Source of the DNA: a virus
Lineage: Duplodnaviria; Heunggongvirae; Uroviricota; Caudoviricetes
DNA: 7,262 nt
IMG/VR virus record: IMGVR_UViG_2734482562_000003
Reading direction: 5' to 3' (one strand)
Notes under the pieces: model-generated
Seen by the model: the letters and a program-made list of their open reading frames with translations, nothing else
Database searches by the model: none
Told to the model about the DNA's origin: nothing
Position numbers and translations under genes: made by a program
Shown here: positions 3 to 5,430 of the stretch, in pieces
Numbering within the stretch: the first letter of the stretch is position 1
Layout of the letters: each line of letters begins with the position of its first letter

Positions 3-380
3 ACCTACAAAGAGCAGCGCGACAAAAACGCAAGAGAACTGAAGCTGGCGAACGCAACCATTACTGACATGCAGCAGCGCCAGCGTGATGCTGATGCACT
101 CGATGCTAAATACACGAAGGAGTTAGCTGATGCGAAAGCTGAAAATGATGCTCTTCGGCGCAAGCTTGATAATGGTGGTCGGGTGCTCGTCAAAGGAAAA
201 TGCCCTGTGCCATCCTCAGCCGAAACCTCCAGCGCCTCCGGCATGGGCAATGATGCCACCGTCGAACTCTCTCCAGTTGCTGGACGAAACGTTCTCGGTA
301 TCCGGGACGGAATCATCAGCGACCAGACAGCATTGAGAATGCTTCAGGAGTACATCAGGATCCAATGCCTTGGGGGGTAG
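3..380 (+). CDS. Rz: Rz-like i-spanin (inner-membrane spanin subunit), 5' end cut by window edge
   Basis: Frame 3 is open from the window start to TAG at 378-380. The translation ([52 protein letters not shown]...) closely matches my recollection of phage lambda Rz (coiled-coil periplasmic region), and two Cys residues (KGKC and IQCLGG) sit where lambda Rz has its cysteines. The true start lies upstream of the window. Confidence 0.85.
130..336 (+). CDS. Rz1: Rz1-like o-spanin (outer-membrane lipoprotein), embedded in the +1 frame of Rz
   Basis: The ORF lies wholly inside Rz in a different frame. A strong RBS AAGGAG (117-122) sits 7 nt before the ATG. The N-terminus [21 protein letters not shown] is a lipoprotein signal peptide with lipobox-like VVGC, followed by a Pro-rich segment ([11 protein letters not shown]), as in lambda Rz1. 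Confidence 0.8.
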
Positions 381-468
381 CGGTAATTTTACTCATTATC
401 CTTCAAATCAGATTCTGTTGTCAGAGGAATGGGGGAAGCTGGATTCGCAAGAGCTTTTTATGGGCAGT

Positions 469-978
469 TTAGCTAAAAAAAGGCAACACGAAGCTAAAAC
501 TACCAACATAAAGTGCTGACCAGCTAGCAGCTGAAATCAGACTCACTGTATACACTTTCACTGGATGAAGTTGCAACATTCCTGCCACCAAAGGAGCAAT
601 ATAACGCAGCACGGCGATAAAGCGCGAAGTGAAAAGTATTGACACAGAGTTATTTTGCAACTGAAGGCGAACCCGTTCTATTGTATTGGAACGGCTTGAT
701 ATTATACATGCAAGTTGAGGGATATGCCCAATTATTATACCAAGATGGTAATTAACGATAGTACCGCACCATGCGCCACTCATGACCGTGATTCCAGCTT
801 CCCATGGTGAAAGAGTCGTCTTGCTGACTGTAATTACAGTGGCCATCATAATTGATGCTGGTGGCAATATCGCCGAAATGAGTAAAGTGGATTTTGTGAA
901 CGCTATTATAAAAAGAAGCCCCCATAGGCGATATGGATGAAGTACAAAATAGTTCATCAAAGCATTTATCCACTCCAT
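469..978 (-). CDS. YqaA/DedA-family polytopic inner-membrane protein (moron; function unknown)
   Basis: A 169-170 codon ORF on the minus strand with ATG at 978-976 (the ORF track starts one codon earlier at TTG 981-979) and TAA stop at 471-469. It is very hydrophobic with several predicted TM segments. The segments ILPPASIMMATVITVSKTTLSPWEAG and RFIAVLRYIAPLVAGM resemble the LLPGNSEVVLVAMLL...HPW and MPVVGDLLCLLAGW regions of E. coli YqaA as I recall it. An AAGGA-like RBS lies about 9 nt upstream on the minus strand. The region is visibly more AT-rich than the flanking phage genes. Confidence 0.65.
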   Translation of the reverse strand: MEWINALMNYFVLHPYRLWGLLFIIAFTKSTLLISAILPPASIMMATVITVSKTTLSPWEAGITVMSGAWCGTIVNYHLGIIIGHIPQLACIISSRSNTIERVRLQLQNNSVSILFTSRFIAVLRYIAPLVAGMLQLHPVKVYTVSLISAASWSALYVGSFSFVLPFFS

Positions 979-1162
979 CAATGTCTTTCCTTCTGTGAAT
1001 TTTTCTTTGCTATTTAACCGTGATACGACTTAATTTAGGCTTAAACACCTTACATTTACAAGGTACTCCTGTGGGGGGCCCTGCCACGGAGCGTCGCAGG
1101 AGTGAGTGATGAGGAAGAATTAAAGCAACCTATTGTGACAGGCAGCGATAACAGTAAATCAC

Positions 1163-1168
1163 AGGAAG
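1163..1168 (+). promoter_or_regulatory. Ribosome-binding site (AGGAAG) for the small terminase gene
   Basis: Purine-rich Shine-Dalgarno-like hexamer 7 nt upstream of the ATG at 1176. Confidence 0.5.
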
Positions 1169-1175
1169 CATAATC

Positions 1176-1940
1176 ATGGCAAAACCGGACTGGGAGGCCA
1201 TCGAATCGGCATACCGGGCCGGAGTCCTTAGCCTCCGTGATATAGGCGAGAAATACGGCGTTACAGAAGGGGCTATCAGGAAGAGGGCCAAAAAGCTTGG
1301 TTGGGCACGCAGTGGCGGTACGCAGGTTTGCAAAAATGGTACGCAAAAAAGGAAAGTGCGTACCAGCAGAAAGCCTGCCATTACTGGCCTTACACAAAAA
1401 AGTACGCAACTAAAAACAGAATCTACACCGGATACGAAACCGATACGCGGAATGCGTACCGATCCCCCGACTAACCCATTCCAACCCGGTAACCAGCAGG
1501 CATTAAAACACGGTGGTTATGCCCGTCGCCTTCTGCTCAAAGATGAGGTGATAGAGGACGCTAAAGCGTTGACGCTCGAGGACGAATTATTTCGCCTTCG
1601 TGCTAACAACCTTGTCGCTGCAGAGAATATTGGTCGGTGGTTGGTGTCGCTGGAAGATGCTAATGGGGACCAGGAAAGGAAGATGCTGATTGAAAATATC
1701 AGCGCCGCCGAGAAAGCAATGATGCGCAATACAGTTCGTATTGAGTCCATCGTTGGCACGCTTGCGACGGTAGGAAAAATATTTGCTGATACAGCCTACC
1801 GCAAGGCCGCCACTGATAAGGTGTCTCTGGAGGCTGATCGTCTTCGCCGTGATGCAGGTATTGATGATGGCAATGGAGAGCGTGACCTCAATGACTTCTA
1901 CTCTGACATCCAAACCGACGCTGAATCCGGCTTTACGTAG
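1176..1940 (+). CDS. terS: Terminase small subunit
   Basis: A 254-aa ORF directly upstream of, and overlapping, the large terminase. The N-terminus has a helix-turn-helix-like segment (LSLRDIGEKYGVTEGAIRKRAKKLGW), and the motif NPFQPGNQQALKHGGYA is typical of phage small terminases as I recall them. It follows a good RBS and ends with TAG at 1938-1940. Confidence 0.8.
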   Translation: MAKPDWEAIESAYRAGVLSLRDIGEKYGVTEGAIRKRAKKLGWARSGGTQVCKNGTQKRKVRTSRKPAITGLTQKSTQLKTESTPDTKPIRGMRTDPPTNPFQPGNQQALKHGGYARRLLLKDEVIEDAKALTLEDELFRLRANNLVAAENIGRWLVSLEDANGDQERKMLIENISAAEKAMMRNTVRIESIVGTLATVGKIFADTAYRKAATDKVSLEADRLRRDAGIDDGNGERDLNDFYSDIQTDAESGFT

Positions 1941-3294
1941 TTTCTGGACTATGCGGGCACGTAACAAAGTGCTTTATGGTGGTCGGTCATCGTCAAAATC
2001 ATGGGATGCCGCTGGCATTGCCATATTTCTGTCGAATAAATACACCCTGCGTTTTTGTTGTGCCCGTCAGATCCAGAATAAAATCGAAGAGTCGGTGTAT
2101 ACCCTGCTCAAAATTCAGATAGACAGGTTTGGTCTGCGGCACCGTTTCCGTATTCTGAACAACAAAATCATTAACCGGGTTACTGGCTCGGAATTTGTTT
2201 TTTATGGATTATGGCGCAACATCGAAGAAATTAAGTCACTGGAGGGGATCGATGTGTTGTGGCTGGAAGAAGCCCACGCACTGACGGAATACCAGTGGAA
2301 AATTCTGGAGCCAACGATCCGTAAAGAGGGTTCGGAATGCTGGTTCATATTCAACCCCGGACTTGTTACTGATTTCGTCTGGCGCAACTTCGTTGTTGAT
2401 CCGCCCGAAGGCACTCTCATCCGCAAAATTAACTATGACGAAAATCCGTTTCTGTCTGACACCATGCTTAAGGTTATCGACGCGGCGCGACGCCGTGATC
2501 CGGATGGTTTTAAACATGTGTATGAGGGCGTTCCGGAGTCTGATGATGATGCGGCAATCATCAAACTGTCTTGGATAGAAGCCGCAGTGGATGCGCACAA
2601 AACGTTAAATTTCGAACCCAGTGGAAGAAAGCGTATTGGCTTTGACGTGGCTGACAGTGGTACAGATAAGTGCGCTAACGTTTACCGTCACGGATCCGTT
2701 GTTTTCTGGGCCGACGAATGGAAGGCCAAAGAAGATGAATTACTGAAGAGCTGCCAGCGTACTTATCAGGCGGCGCTGGAGCGTGAAGCAGATATTGTTT
2801 ACGACTCTATCGGTGTTGGTGCGTCTGCCGGTGCTAAATTCTCTGAAATTAACGCTGACCGGAAGAGCGAGAACGCATACGCGCGACGTGTGAATTACCA
2901 GAGGTTTAACGCCGGTGCTGGTGTGCATGAGCCAGATGACGAGTACAACGGCATCCCCAACAAAGACTTTTTCGCAAATCTTAAGGCTCAGGCATGGTGG
3001 CTGGTGGCTGACCGTTTCAGAAATACGTTTAACGCCATTAACAACGGAGAACAGTATCCTGTGGATGAGCTGATCAGCATAGATTCTCGTTGTCCGTTGC
3101 TTGAAAAGCTGAAACTGGAACTGACAACACCTCATCGTGATTTCGACCGTAACGGACGTGTGATGGTCGAAAGTAAAAAAGACCTCGCAAAACGCGAGAT
3201 ACCGTCACCAAACGTTGCTGATGCATTCATTATGGCCTTCGCGCCAATCGATACATCGCTGGATATCTGGGAACAGCTGGGGAGACAGGCCTGA
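1891..3294 (+). CDS. terL: Terminase large subunit (ATPase plus nuclease)
   Basis: The long ORF is open from 1783, but the likely start is ATG 1891 (MTSTLTSKPTLNP...) with GGAGAG 10 nt upstream; alternative starts are 1864, 1873 and 1951. It contains a P-loop-like segment YGGRSSSKSW and a Walker-B-like IDVLWLEEAH. Overall it resembles, from memory, the Sf6-type large terminase (e.g. IKSLEGID, FVVDPP, and the C-terminal SPNVADAFIMA nuclease-region motif). Stop is TGA 3292-3294. Confidence 0.85.
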   Translation: MTSTLTSKPTLNPALRSFWTMRARNKVLYGGRSSSKSWDAAGIAIFLSNKYTLRFCCARQIQNKIEESVYTLLKIQIDRFGLRHRFRILNNKIINRVTGSEFVFYGLWRNIEEIKSLEGIDVLWLEEAHALTEYQWKILEPTIRKEGSECWFIFNPGLVTDFVWRNFVVDPPEGTLIRKINYDENPFLSDTMLKVIDAARRRDPDGFKHVYEGVPESDDDAAIIKLSWIEAAVDAHKTLNFEPSGRKRIGFDVADSGTDKCANVYRHGSVVFWADEWKAKEDELLKSCQRTYQAALEREADIVYDSIGVGASAGAKFSEINADRKSENAYARRVNYQRFNAGAGVHEPDDEYNGIPNKDFFANLKAQAWWLVADRFRNTFNAINNGEQYPVDELISIDSRCPLLEKLKLELTTPHRDFDRNGRVMVESKKDLAKREIPSPNVADAFIMAFAPIDTSLDIWEQLGRQA

Positions 3295-4760: not shown

Positions 4761-5430
4761 CAGTATCACGGAAATTATTGCGGCGCTGGAGCGTTACAGT
4801 GAAATCATCACCCCCTGGGCGACAAAGGTCGCGGAAAACTTTACTGCGGACCTAACCCGGCAGAACGAGAAAGTTTGGCGGCAACACAGCAAGAACATCA
4901 GTCGCGAGCTCCGCAATCTTGTGGAAAGCGCTCCTGTGGGCCAGGTGATGCAATCCATCATCGCCGAACAGGTCAAGTACATCAAATCTCTGCCTCTCGA
5001 GGCCGCAGACAGGGTGTACGACATCCAGAACAAAGCGATAGAGGCTGTTGTCACCGGTGGTCGGGCGGAGCAGTTTGCTAAAGAGATTGCATCTACCGGC
5101 GATGTTGCTAAGTCTAGGGCCGATCTGNNNNNNNNNNNNNNNNNNNNNNNNNNNNNNNNNNNNNNNNNNNNNNNNNNNNNNNNNNNNNNNNNNNNNNNNN
5201 NNNNNNNNNNNNNNNNNNNNNNNNNNNNNNNNNNNNNNNNNNNNNNNNNNNNNNNNNNNNNNNNNNNNNNNNNNNNNNNNNNNNNNNNNNNNNNNNNNNN
5301 NNNNNNNNNNNNNNNNNNNNNNNNNNNNNNNNNNNNNNNNNNNNNNNNNNNNNNNNNNNNNNNNNNNNNNNNNNNNNNNNNNNNNNNNNNNNNNNNNNNN
5401 NNNNNNNNNNNNATGAAAAGGGCAGCATAA
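4612..5430 (+). CDS. Putative head morphogenesis / minor head protein, interrupted by an assembly gap
   Basis: ORF with a GAGGA RBS 8 nt before ATG 4612. It overlaps the 3' end of the portal frame by 149 nt in another frame and sits between the portal and the scaffold-like gene. The central part is unknown (N run 5128-5412), so length and frame continuity across the gap cannot be verified. The function call is based mainly on synteny. Confidence 0.4.
   Translation: MPKMKRRPASANLMTNRRSRQAEIRYRTSLRRIARAVGDIVNGRYDGSNDSITEIIAALERYSEIITPWATKVAENFTADLTRQNEKVWRQHSKNISRELRNLVESAPVGQVMQSIIAEQVKYIKSLPLEAADRVYDIQNKAIEAVVTGGRAEQFAKEIASTGDVAKSRADLXXXXXXXXXXXXXXXXXXXXXXXXXXXXXXXXXXXXXXXXXXXXXXXXXXXXXXXXXXXXXXXXXXXXXXXXXXXXXXXXXXXXXXXXXXXXXXXMKRAA
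5128..5412. other. Run of 285 N (assembly gap or masked sequence)
   Basis: Directly visible in the sequence. True length and content are unknown. Confidence 0.99.

Follow-up and report, generated by a model that had tools for sequence, protein, structure and literature searches.

Why would a prophage of E. coli and Shigella carry, between its lysis and DNA-packaging genes, a lone gene that opposes both and appears to encode a membrane protein, and what might this gene do for the bacterium that carries it? The slot between Rz/Rz1 and the terminase is a moron site in lambdoid phages, occupied by bor in lambda. The DedA superfamily, to which a first-pass annotation had assigned the product, has been connected with resistance to colistin, the recycling of undecaprenyl-phosphate and the homeostasis of the membrane, but how its proteins work is still unsettled and none has a solved structure. 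We analysed the stretch of prophage DNA on which this locus lies (7,262 nucleotides, hereafter the window). The features of the slot and of its flanks are as follows.

69–380, plus strand: Rz i-spanin, the left flank (PF03245, 7e-22; phrog_13, 1e-43)
130–336, embedded in Rz: Rz1 o-spanin (PF06085, 4e-21)
371–1168 (798 bp): inserted cargo segment, absent in otherwise homologous prophages, GC 42.6%
459–1053 (595 bp), minus strand: mobile module, made up of the ORF with 10 bp downstream and 72 bp upstream
469–978, minus strand: coding sequence of a short DedA/VTT-domain inner-membrane protein, 169 aa (MEW...) from the ATG at 978–976, stop at 469–471
985–994, minus strand: Shine-Dalgarno-like AGAAGGAAAG, read from the sequence
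1176–1940, plus strand: TerS, small terminase subunit, the right flank (phrog_370, 7.5e-95)
1891–3294, after TerS: TerL, PBSX-type large terminase subunit (Terminase_3, 4.5e-38; RefSeq annotation of the identical prophage L001)

The profile matches to Rz, Rz1, TerS and TerL confirm the position that had been proposed for the gene, as a single opposite-strand ORF between lysis and terminase genes. The 5' part of Rz lies before the first in-frame start in the window. The cargo segment was acquired separately from the phage genes around it, as the first-pass annotation had suspected: the same Rz and TerS are found in at least 28 E. coli prophages that have 57 bp in place of the 798-bp insert. Two of these (L021 and L022) align with window positions 4–370 and 1169–2000 at 84–91% identity, with the 57 bp between the two blocks. 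The interval of 381–1175 originally given for the locus is the intergenic gap, and the inserted DNA itself runs from 371 to 1168. Its left junction (370/371) falls within the final codons of Rz, which is why the C-terminal residues of Rz differ from those of the empty-slot phages. The estimate by eye of about 40% GC against about 50% for the neighbouring genes was close to the measured values, which are 41.7% for the gene (38.6% at third codon positions) and 52.1% for the window outside the insert; the lowest GC found outside the insert, among 208 windows of 513 bp, is 46.4% and hence still above that of the gene. A search for direct or inverted repeats flanking the insert, as possible marks of transposition or integration, gave none that were convincing, and an Rfam scan of positions 300–1300 gave nothing credible.

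The part of the insert that recurs elsewhere is the 595-bp module. It is 82% identical at the nucleotide level to a stretch of a lambda-like prophage of Citrobacter youngae (L002) and 77% identical to the chromosome of C. meridianamericanus (L005), and the ORF is 66% identical to its counterpart in C. amalonaticus. The C. youngae prophage is unrelated and has a GpA terminase, yet the same module lies in the same slot, on the opposite strand. Homology of the module stops 6 nt beyond the candidate promoter box described below. Taken with the empty-slot prophages and the shift in GC, its presence in an unrelated Citrobacter prophage suggests that the gene is a phage moron, that is, cargo for lysogenic conversion. 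It resembles bor and other lambdoid morons of the Rz–terminase slot as a single inserted gene of deviant GC that runs against late transcription, has a promoter-like element of its own and is missing from related phages. It differs from bor in that the product would be a polytopic DedA-type membrane protein and not a lipoprotein, in that the candidate promoter of the cargo is homologous to those of chromosomal orthologues, and in that no terminator was found.

The ORF matches the VTT domain (Pfam VTT_dom, PF09335) with an E-value of 9.3e-14 and 52.4 bits, above the cut-off of 33.9, with residues 42–162 covering profile positions 3–121 of 123; this bears out the assignment to the DedA superfamily. 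The closer resemblance to YqaA that had been proposed did not hold up. When the protein was compared with all eight E. coli K-12 DedA paralogues by BLASTP (E≤10) and phmmer, YqaA gave no match, whereas YabI, DedA, YqjA, YohD and YghB did, the nearest being YabI (24.6% identity, E 8e-12), DedA and YqjA at 23–25% identity. Membership in the NCBIfam equivalogs for UptA (NF052604 and NF052605; 19.5 bits where 250 would be required, and 16.0 where 300 would be) and in the YqjA-type equivalogs (score 30.7, cut-off 236) was likewise rejected; the UptA profile matches weakly over residues 42–159 (E 8e-4). The product had been given as 170 aa, which holds for translation from a TTG at 981–979 (469–981, the RefSeq choice), but the ATG that begins MEW is common to all homologues and yields 169 aa. 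The predicted ribosome-binding site is in place upstream of both. With a dN/dS of 0.15–0.24, even between the two phage-borne copies, sequence comparison shows the ORF to be a functional gene under purifying selection.

Judged by its sequence relatives, the protein is a member of a small, distinct and sharply bounded DedA subfamily of the Enterobacterales. Only 12 representatives are found at E≤1e-30 among 1.84e9 proteins, and scores at the edge of the subfamily drop from 145 to 81 bits. Chromosomal orthologues occur in Enterobacter, Kosakonia, Citrobacter, Hafnia, Morganella and Arsenophonus, often beside mgtE: the two genes are direct neighbours, in divergent orientation, in about 28 Enterobacter species, Lelliottia and Huaxiibacter, and co-directional in several Arsenophonus. 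The gene is also kept in the 0.85–0.93-Mb genomes of Arsenophonus that are obligate insect symbionts. There is no adjacent mgtE in Kosakonia, Citrobacter, Morganella or the two prophages. The identical protein is present on at least 1000 contigs, from Shigella flexneri; in E. coli the gene is rare, being carried by 6 of 5426 complete genomes. None of the sequenced phage genomes carries the gene, the tblastn matches there (at most 30% identity) being generic DedA genes in contig-like records. In agreement with the first-pass annotation, the literature and phage databases searched held no described phage function for such a gene and nothing relevant on DedA genes of phages or prophages.

What the protein might do can be approached through the residues that it shares with better-studied relatives. 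An AF2 model built on a 59-sequence alignment (pLDDT 77, pTM 0.72; a model from 13 sequences was too poor, with pLDDT 54) has a helix-break-helix at residues 32–52 and another at 111–134, each followed by a long helix. Neither sequence searches nor Foldseek against the PDB found a relative of solved structure, and the BFVD library of viral structures gave only insignificant matches, to 'SNARE associated' proteins of giant viruses. Work on YqjA has located residues E39, D51, R130 and R136 at a proposed lipid site; substitution of E39 or D51, both required for function, inactivates the protein, and the hairpins that carry these two residues have been proposed as the dimer interface (bioRxiv 10.64898/2026.09.20.752871). 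The phage protein retains the arginine pair (R119 and R125, equivalent to R130 and R136), which is invariant or nearly so across the subfamily and its relatives, as well as the serine corresponding to S52. At the positions of E39 and D51 it has K29 and A41. Lysine occupies position 29 in 20 of 20 subfamily sequences, against glutamate in about 130 of the 150 best relatives, and is restricted to this subfamily among the relatives compared; no acidic residue is invariant within the subfamily. A non-acidic residue at the D51 position is shared with many YabI-like DedA proteins. Since E39 and D51 are both needed in YqjA, the Lys/Ala variant may not transport in the manner of canonical DedA proteins.

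The phage protein is best described as an atypical DedA protein. With YabI, DedA, YqjA and YghB it shares the VTT match, two predicted re-entrant hairpins, the arginine pair and the serine. It departs from them in having lysine for a near-universal glutamate and alanine for D51, in changes to the Asp/Cys and Arg of the G-D-x3-Y-x2-G-R motif, and in lacking about 45 C-terminal residues including the last transmembrane helix (169 aa compared with 192–254 aa). The UptA-type undecaprenyl-phosphate transporters have the superfamily and the arginine pair in common with it but keep the glutamate that it lacks.

We then consider how the gene might be expressed. The upstream end of the module contains the following elements.

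1031–1047, minus strand: direct-repeat box TGTTTA-AGCCT-AAATTA, matching the PhoP-box consensus at 9/12 positions
1029–1045, minus strand, overlapping the PhoP-like box: PmrA-box pattern YTTAAK-N5-YTTAAK, with 1 mismatch
1012–1017, minus strand: -10-like hexamer TTAAAT, separated by 13 nt from the box upstream of it, with no -35 hexamer
about 1003–1006, minus strand: predicted transcription start

The PhoP box was taken as a direct repeat, (T/G)GTTTA-N5-(T/G)GTTTA, lying 11–13 nt before the -10, with box consensus definitions from published work (PMC3335776, PMC5775216, PMC10570014); the usual search threshold is no more than 2 mismatches, and 9/12 matches to this consensus are common in AT-rich DNA. 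In the same scan the K-12 phoP and mgtA promoters, as positive controls, scored 12/12 at 12 nt. The box in the window is the sole such site on the minus strand of the window, and its position matches that of the proximal box of the Enterobacter and Citrobacter orthologues. The C. youngae phage box scores 10/12 with 12-nt spacing, and the Enterobacter orthologues combine a proximal box of 9–10/12 at 12 nt with a distal box of 12/12. The window, the loci of Citrobacter and most of those of Enterobacter all have TTAAAT, at a distance of 12 nt from the box; in the window the distance is 13 nt, owing to one inserted nucleotide that the Citrobacter copies lack. Box and hexamer are thus shared by clades whose proteins have diverged to about 50% identity. 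The box is absent from the Kosakonia, Arsenophonus and Morganella orthologues. A scan for consensus sigma-70 promoters gave no site in the right place, and the search for a terminator downstream found none, the RNA fold there being no better than that of shuffled sequences (z = 0.53). The PmrA-box reading was demoted to a secondary one, as the Citrobacter and Enterobacter copies have TTGAG for TTAAG, which alters the AA contacted by PmrA.

These observations make the upstream stretch a conserved candidate promoter of PhoP-box type. It resembles the PhoP promoters of architectures I and II (mgtA, phoP, virK, ybjX; Zwir et al. 2012, PMC3335776) in that a direct repeat of period 11 replaces the -35, 12–13 nt before the -10, and the Enterobacter orthologues add, as in architecture II, a perfect second box upstream. 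The window copy departs from both architectures by its 3 mismatches and 1-nt insertion. Expression data from Enterobacter point in the same direction. In a colistin-resistant E. hormaechei isolate with an mgrB deletion, MgtE, a 'DedA family protein' and an SDR protein are up 19.6-, 23.1- and 3.1-fold (PMC10434160). The order of these three genes is that found in the E. hormaechei loci L036 and L046, so that the induced gene (N5F16_08430) is identified as the subfamily orthologue by synteny and not by sequence; the intergenic region between mgtE and the dedA gene in E. hormaechei holds an M-box riboswitch and a perfect PhoP box. Through this presumed Enterobacter orthologue, the gene is linked to the mgrB/PhoPQ response, the basis of colistin resistance in the clinic. 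In a phoPQ microarray of S. flexneri 301 (PMC5775216) no phage or DedA gene is among the 117 differentially expressed genes, a weak negative, since the locus tag of the gene is unmapped.

With a probability of roughly 55%, we favour the reading that this is a lysogenic-conversion gene, a captured module encoding an atypical DedA protein under its own activator-dependent promoter. A lambdoid prophage would have taken up the 0.6-kb module from a Citrobacter- or Kosakonia-like chromosome. Because the gene opposes late phage transcription, it would be expressed in the lysogen and not during lytic growth. The lack of a -35 and a PhoP-type box one helical turn before the -10 make PhoPQ the most likely trigger, with PmrAB as a possibility, and the signal would then be envelope stress from low Mg2+, cationic peptides or acid pH. 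The product is predicted to insert into the inner membrane with a DedA fold, its two re-entrant hairpins meeting mid-membrane, and to keep the arginine pair that DedA proteins use for anionic lipid head-groups. With lysine in place of the essential glutamate and no conserved carboxylate, it would most likely dispense with the usual proton coupling and bind or equilibrate an anionic lipid, either polyprenyl-phosphate or a phospholipid. A captured gene with a PhoPQ-type promoter may so alter the envelope of its host, and the consequence could be an accessory envelope or Mg2+-homeostasis function for E. coli and Shigella, which lack the subfamily; in Enterobacter the corresponding function would sit with mgtE and arn in the regulon of mgrB/PhoPQ. 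A more specific form of the proposal is offered tentatively, at odds well below even: that the phage spreads a PhoPQ/PmrAB-wired DedA protein, uncoupled by the Glu-to-Lys exchange and acting as flippase or anionic-lipid binder, through Shigella and some E. coli, and thereby measurably changes how the lysogen tolerates polymyxin or cationic peptides, modifies its lipid A or maintains Mg2+ homeostasis.

The neighbourhood of mgtE invites another reading, in which the protein natively works with the MgtE channel as an accessory of Mg2+ and divalent-cation homeostasis. Rather than flip lipid, it would adjust the uptake of Mg2+ or the membrane potential behind that uptake, and the phage copy would bring this activity to the lysogen. 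The adjacency in Enterobacter, Lelliottia, Huaxiibacter and several Arsenophonus and the joint induction in E. hormaechei are consistent with this, as is the finding that K. pneumoniae yqjA yghB mutants are rescued by Mg2+/Ca2+ and take up Ca2+ more slowly (PMC10846249). The module nevertheless travels without mgtE in Kosakonia, Citrobacter, Morganella and both prophages, and co-regulation by PhoP would explain the synteny without physical partnership. To our knowledge E. coli and Shigella have no mgtE, and we hold this reading to be unlikely. Lower still we place a role in superinfection exclusion or anti-phage defence, with the protein blocking DNA entry or membrane steps of incoming phages. 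Exclusion genes are typically small inner-membrane proteins expressed from prophages, and a slot near the lysis genes is typical of them; the opposite orientation and the promoter-like element would fit such a role. Against it, the close orthologues are stably kept on chromosomes in a conserved gene order, even in obligate insect symbionts with genomes below 1 Mb, PADLOC defence models gave no match, and the Enterobacter orthologue is induced alongside envelope-remodelling genes, so that the regulon points to envelope or Mg2+ stress more than to exclusion. The functional ideas of the first-pass annotation, among them undecaprenyl-phosphate recycling, antimicrobial tolerance and exclusion, are still speculative.

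The substitutions at the E39 and D51 positions, with the arginines retained, could also mean that the protein is catalytically dead and tunes transport in a dominant-negative or sequestering manner, either by heterodimerising with host DedA proteins or by binding substrate without turnover. The inactivation of YqjA by changes at these residues and the proposed dimerisation through their hairpins lend this some appeal. Lys29 is invariant, however, in a protein under purifying selection, retention in the highly reduced Arsenophonus genomes suggests an autonomous function, and the loss of the acidic residue at D51 is shared with many YabI-like proteins; we consider it a rather improbable account. 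That the segment is neutral DNA which hitch-hikes without serving either phage or host is the explanation to which we attach the least weight, as a very improbable one: its rarity in E. coli, its absence from sequenced phage isolates and the missing terminator would be expected of a neutral passenger, but the ORF is intact and identical on all of those contigs, the low dN/dS extends to the phage-borne copies, and two unrelated prophages keep the same module with its promoter box.

The locus is evidence that temperate phages move such a gene, with its putative stress-responsive promoter, into Shigella flexneri and some E. coli, which otherwise lack the subfamily. Should the more specific form of our proposal, of a stress-wired DedA protein working without the coupling glutamate, be correct, it would be a mobile accessory gene for envelope remodelling. 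An effect of the phage copy on cationic-peptide tolerance or on the handling of Mg2+ would make this a new class of lysogenic-conversion function; without any effect, the gene is one more ordinary moron with the annotation 'DedA family protein'. The protein would also serve as a natural mechanistic variant for dissecting DedA proteins, as a conserved lysine at a supposedly essential glutamate is a ready test of the proton-coupling model. The nearest outgroup provides a link to lipids. The best-scoring relatives outside the subfamily are VTT+PAP2+LssY_C fusions of 530–700 aa, whose N-terminal DedA core of about 160 aa stops, as the phage protein does, before the extra C-terminal helix, but which keep the glutamate and carry a lipid-phosphate phosphatase domain where the phage protein stands alone.

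The DedA-type cargo gene is flanked as claimed in the first-pass annotation, with Pfam and PHROG matches placing Rz/Rz1 on its left and the small and large terminase subunits (TerS, TerL) on its right:

69-380: Rz, left flank of the cargo gene
130-336: Rz1, embedded in Rz, left flank
469-981, minus strand: DedA-type ORF, TTG start, 170 aa
1176-1940: small terminase subunit (phrog_370, E 7.5e-95), right flank
Right of the small terminase: PBSX-type large terminase

An ATG one codon after the TTG (978-976) opens the sequence MEW... common to all homologues, which makes 169 aa the better-supported length. The proposed membership of the DedA superfamily was confirmed by profile search, the product matching Pfam VTT_dom (the DedA/'SNARE-associated' domain) with E 9.3e-14 and a score of 52.4 bits (gathering score 33.9). 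A near-identical prophage adjoins ybhA/modC in E. coli FDAARGOS_944, with the order integrase ... holin-lysozyme-Rz / DedA / TerS-TerL-portal ... baseplate, and its copy of the gene appears in RefSeq as 'DedA family protein' WP_011069285.1. The TerL start in RefSeq overlaps the TerS 3' end by 50 nt (window 1891-1940); the longest ORF would begin at 1783. Within the head-morphogenesis/DUF2213 region, 5127-5411 consists of N (masked or unsequenced), and ORFs spanning this stretch are artefacts.

The cargo gene was acquired separately, as had been suspected, and a survey of prophages shows this directly. At least 28 complete E. coli genomes have the same Rz and TerS with a far shorter spacer; in the empty-slot prophages L021 and L022, window 4-370 and 1169-2000 align with 57 bp between them, versus 798 bp (371-1168) in the window. 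The left insertion junction lies inside the final Rz codons (window 358-380 versus L021 655-700), where the C-terminus reads ...QCLGG in the window and ...CLK in the empty-slot phage, and a GC-rich hairpin (GAGCCAC...GTGGCTC) that follows Rz in the empty-slot prophages is lost. The AT-richness estimated earlier (about 40 vs 50% GC) also holds: GC is 41.7% (GC3 38.6%) in the gene vs 52.1% in the remainder of the window, and no 513-bp window outside the insert goes below 46.4% (208 windows).

The gene is mobile as a module. A 78% identical protein is carried in Citrobacter youngae by a different lambda-like prophage (L002), with a GpA/Nu1-type terminase, lambda-type portal and GH19 endolysin, where the gene sits in the same lysis/terminase slot and again on the opposite strand. 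Window 459-1053, comprising the ORF, 10 bp past its stop codon and 72 bp upstream, is 82% identical to the corresponding stretch of this prophage and 77% identical to that of the C. meridianamericanus chromosome. Kosakonia, C. amalonaticus, Enterobacter and Arsenophonus likewise have the gene on the chromosome. The slot gathers cargo in the C. youngae prophage, where three or four extra small ORFs (DUF6694, plus unknowns of 119 and 161-215 aa) separate the DedA gene from the Nu1-like terminase (slot at L002 8311-9818).

Within the superfamily, the earlier label of YqaA-like did not survive comparison with the full set of eight DedA paralogues of E. coli K-12: YqaA gave no match to the phage protein, though YabI (24.6% identity, E 8e-12), DedA (23%), YqjA (24%) and, more weakly, YohD and YghB did. 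The NCBIfam equivalogs of DedA/YqjA type (30.7 against a cut-off of 236) and UptA type (19.5 against 250) were rejected. A close-homologue profile retrieved only 12 representatives at E<=1e-30 from 1.84 billion cluster representatives, and in a word-indexed search scores fall from at least 145 to 81 bits at the subfamily edge. The hosts of this subfamily are Enterobacter (about 28 species), Lelliottia, Huaxiibacter, Kosakonia, Citrobacter, Hafnia, Morganella, Proteus myxofaciens and many Arsenophonus, including symbionts with 0.85-0.93 Mb genomes; in the smallest Arsenophonus genomes the product has shrunk to about 148 aa. Nearest to the subfamily are the ~160-aa DedA cores that form the N-terminus of VTT+PAP2+LssY_C fusion proteins (530-700 aa in length), and this fusion to PAP2 and LssY_C points towards lipid-phosphate substrates for this DedA branch. 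Such fusions are numerous among the representatives (e.g. P0041, P0042, P0044, P0047).

Residues were compared in alignments with the K-12 paralogues and across the top 150 relatives. At the position of YqjA E39, about 130 of these 150 have Glu, and 20/20 subfamily sequences have Lys (motif K-S-T); the D51 position holds Ala in the subfamily (motif P-P-A-S), but is less diagnostic because it is non-acidic in many YabI-like proteins too. YqjA R130, R136 and S52 have retained counterparts in R119, R125 and S42; the subfamily alignment contains no invariant acidic residue. YqjA E39/D51 and R130/R136 substitutions are reported to be non-functional, and these residues have been put at the centre of a dimer built by re-entrant hairpins, the proposed lipid site (bioRxiv 10.64898/2026.09.20.752871, preprint). 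Compared with YqjA/DedA, the subfamily C-terminus is about 45 residues shorter, and so the last TM helix is missing. An AlphaFold2 model of the phage protein (59 sequences, pLDDT 77, pTM 0.72) predicts helix-break-helix elements at 32-52 (break P39-P40) and 111-134, each followed by a long helix, a layout as expected for DedA topology. No matching solved structure was found for protein or model, nor any BFVD model matching the latter.

[quoted passage not shown]

N5F16_08425, MgtE: 19.6x and 7.7x
N5F16_08430, 'DedA family protein': 23.1x and 11.9x
N5F16_08435, SDR: 3.1x and 2.4x

The E. hormaechei loci L036 and L046 have the order mgtE - DedA-like - SDR, exactly as in N5F16_08425-08435, which by synteny makes N5F16_08430 the probable subfamily orthologue. 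Gene order and induction together place the Enterobacter orthologue, again by synteny, in the response controlled by mgrB/PhoPQ, to which arn, pagP and mgtA also belong. The mgtE leader of L036 contains an M-box Mg2+ riboswitch (RF00380, 113 bits; 7672-7841, minus strand), and between this riboswitch and the divergent DedA-like gene there is a perfect PhoP box (about 7897-7913), so that PhoP and the riboswitch would both control mgtE. The differentially expressed genes of an S. flexneri 301 phoPQ microarray study include no phage or DedA gene, a weak negative with the gene's locus tag unmapped.

A consensus scan of the window found no suitably placed sigma-70 promoter or terminator, and neither it nor folding of the downstream RNA gave a terminator for the cargo gene. 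Phylogenetic footprinting across clades with ~50% identical proteins identified a sole conserved block upstream of the ORF, a period-11 direct repeat followed by TTAAAT:

Window: GTGTTTAAGCCTAAATTAAGTCGTATCACGGTTAAAT
Citrobacter: GTGTTGAGGCCTGATTGAGTCGTATCAGGGTTAAAT
Enterobacter: GCGTTGAGGGTTTATTTAAGGTTATTCATTTTAAAT

Scored against the published PhoP box (T/G)GTTTA-N5-(T/G)GTTTA, the proximal box of Enterobacter and Citrobacter matches at 9-10 of 12 positions, with a distance of exactly 12 nt to the TTAAAT or TCTAAT downstream of it. That of the window (1031-1047), the one minus-strand site in the whole window by the same scan, lies 13 nt upstream of TTAAAT owing to a 1-nt insertion. Most Enterobacter species have a perfect 12/12 second box about 20 nt farther upstream, and the one-box and two-box layouts correspond to architectures I (a single direct box, 11-13 nt from the -10) and II (a further box upstream) of Zwir et al. 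(PMC3335776). The E. coli K-12 phoP and mgtA promoters, scanned as positive controls, gave 12/12 boxes at 12 nt; the upstream regions of Kosakonia, Arsenophonus and Morganella contain no box. With a 9/12 match, the window's own box would be a weak PhoP candidate. It is likewise the only site in the window to match the PmrA-box pattern, with one mismatch, and PmrA control of this copy may be considered a secondary possibility, since other clades have TTGAG where PmrA contacts AA. Homology with other contexts stops 6 nt past the box, so the upstream DNA retained is just the box and the -10.

A lysogenic-conversion module is the best-supported reading of the gene; its function in the lysogen, like every functional statement on the lysogen made here, is something we infer. 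The captured unit would be a chromosomal, stress-regulated, atypical DedA gene with its minimal activator-dependent promoter, set into a classic moron slot and oriented against late transcription. The retained arginine pair and the relatives fused to PAP2 phosphatases suggest that the protein probably still handles an anionic lipid head-group; the canonical carboxylate would not be usable, and an uncoupled or binding role therefore seems more likely than proton-driven transport.

Alternatively, the protein may be a partner in Mg2+ homeostasis: mgtE is the divergent neighbour of the gene in about 28 Enterobacter species, Lelliottia and Huaxiibacter, and lies directly downstream of it in several Arsenophonus. 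Other alternatives to the lysogenic-conversion module as set out here are superinfection exclusion, a dominant-negative subunit and a neutral passenger. The gene is under selection, with dN/dS of 0.15-0.24 for the window gene against Citrobacter/Kosakonia homologues and, within this range, 0.24 for a pair of phage-borne copies.

The gene is carried by 6 of 5426 complete E. coli genomes and by none of the sequenced phages of the INPHARED set; at least 1000 contigs, most of them Shigella flexneri, encode the exact protein, under generic names only. In the Shigella-type viral contigs L106 and L107, a gene with 99-100% identity lies between IS-element transposase ORFs (L106 6427-11315; L107 6598-7802 and 8672-9876). 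Those of L107 are inverted copies on both sides of the gene, which suggests IS-mediated rearrangement of the prophage in these contigs.
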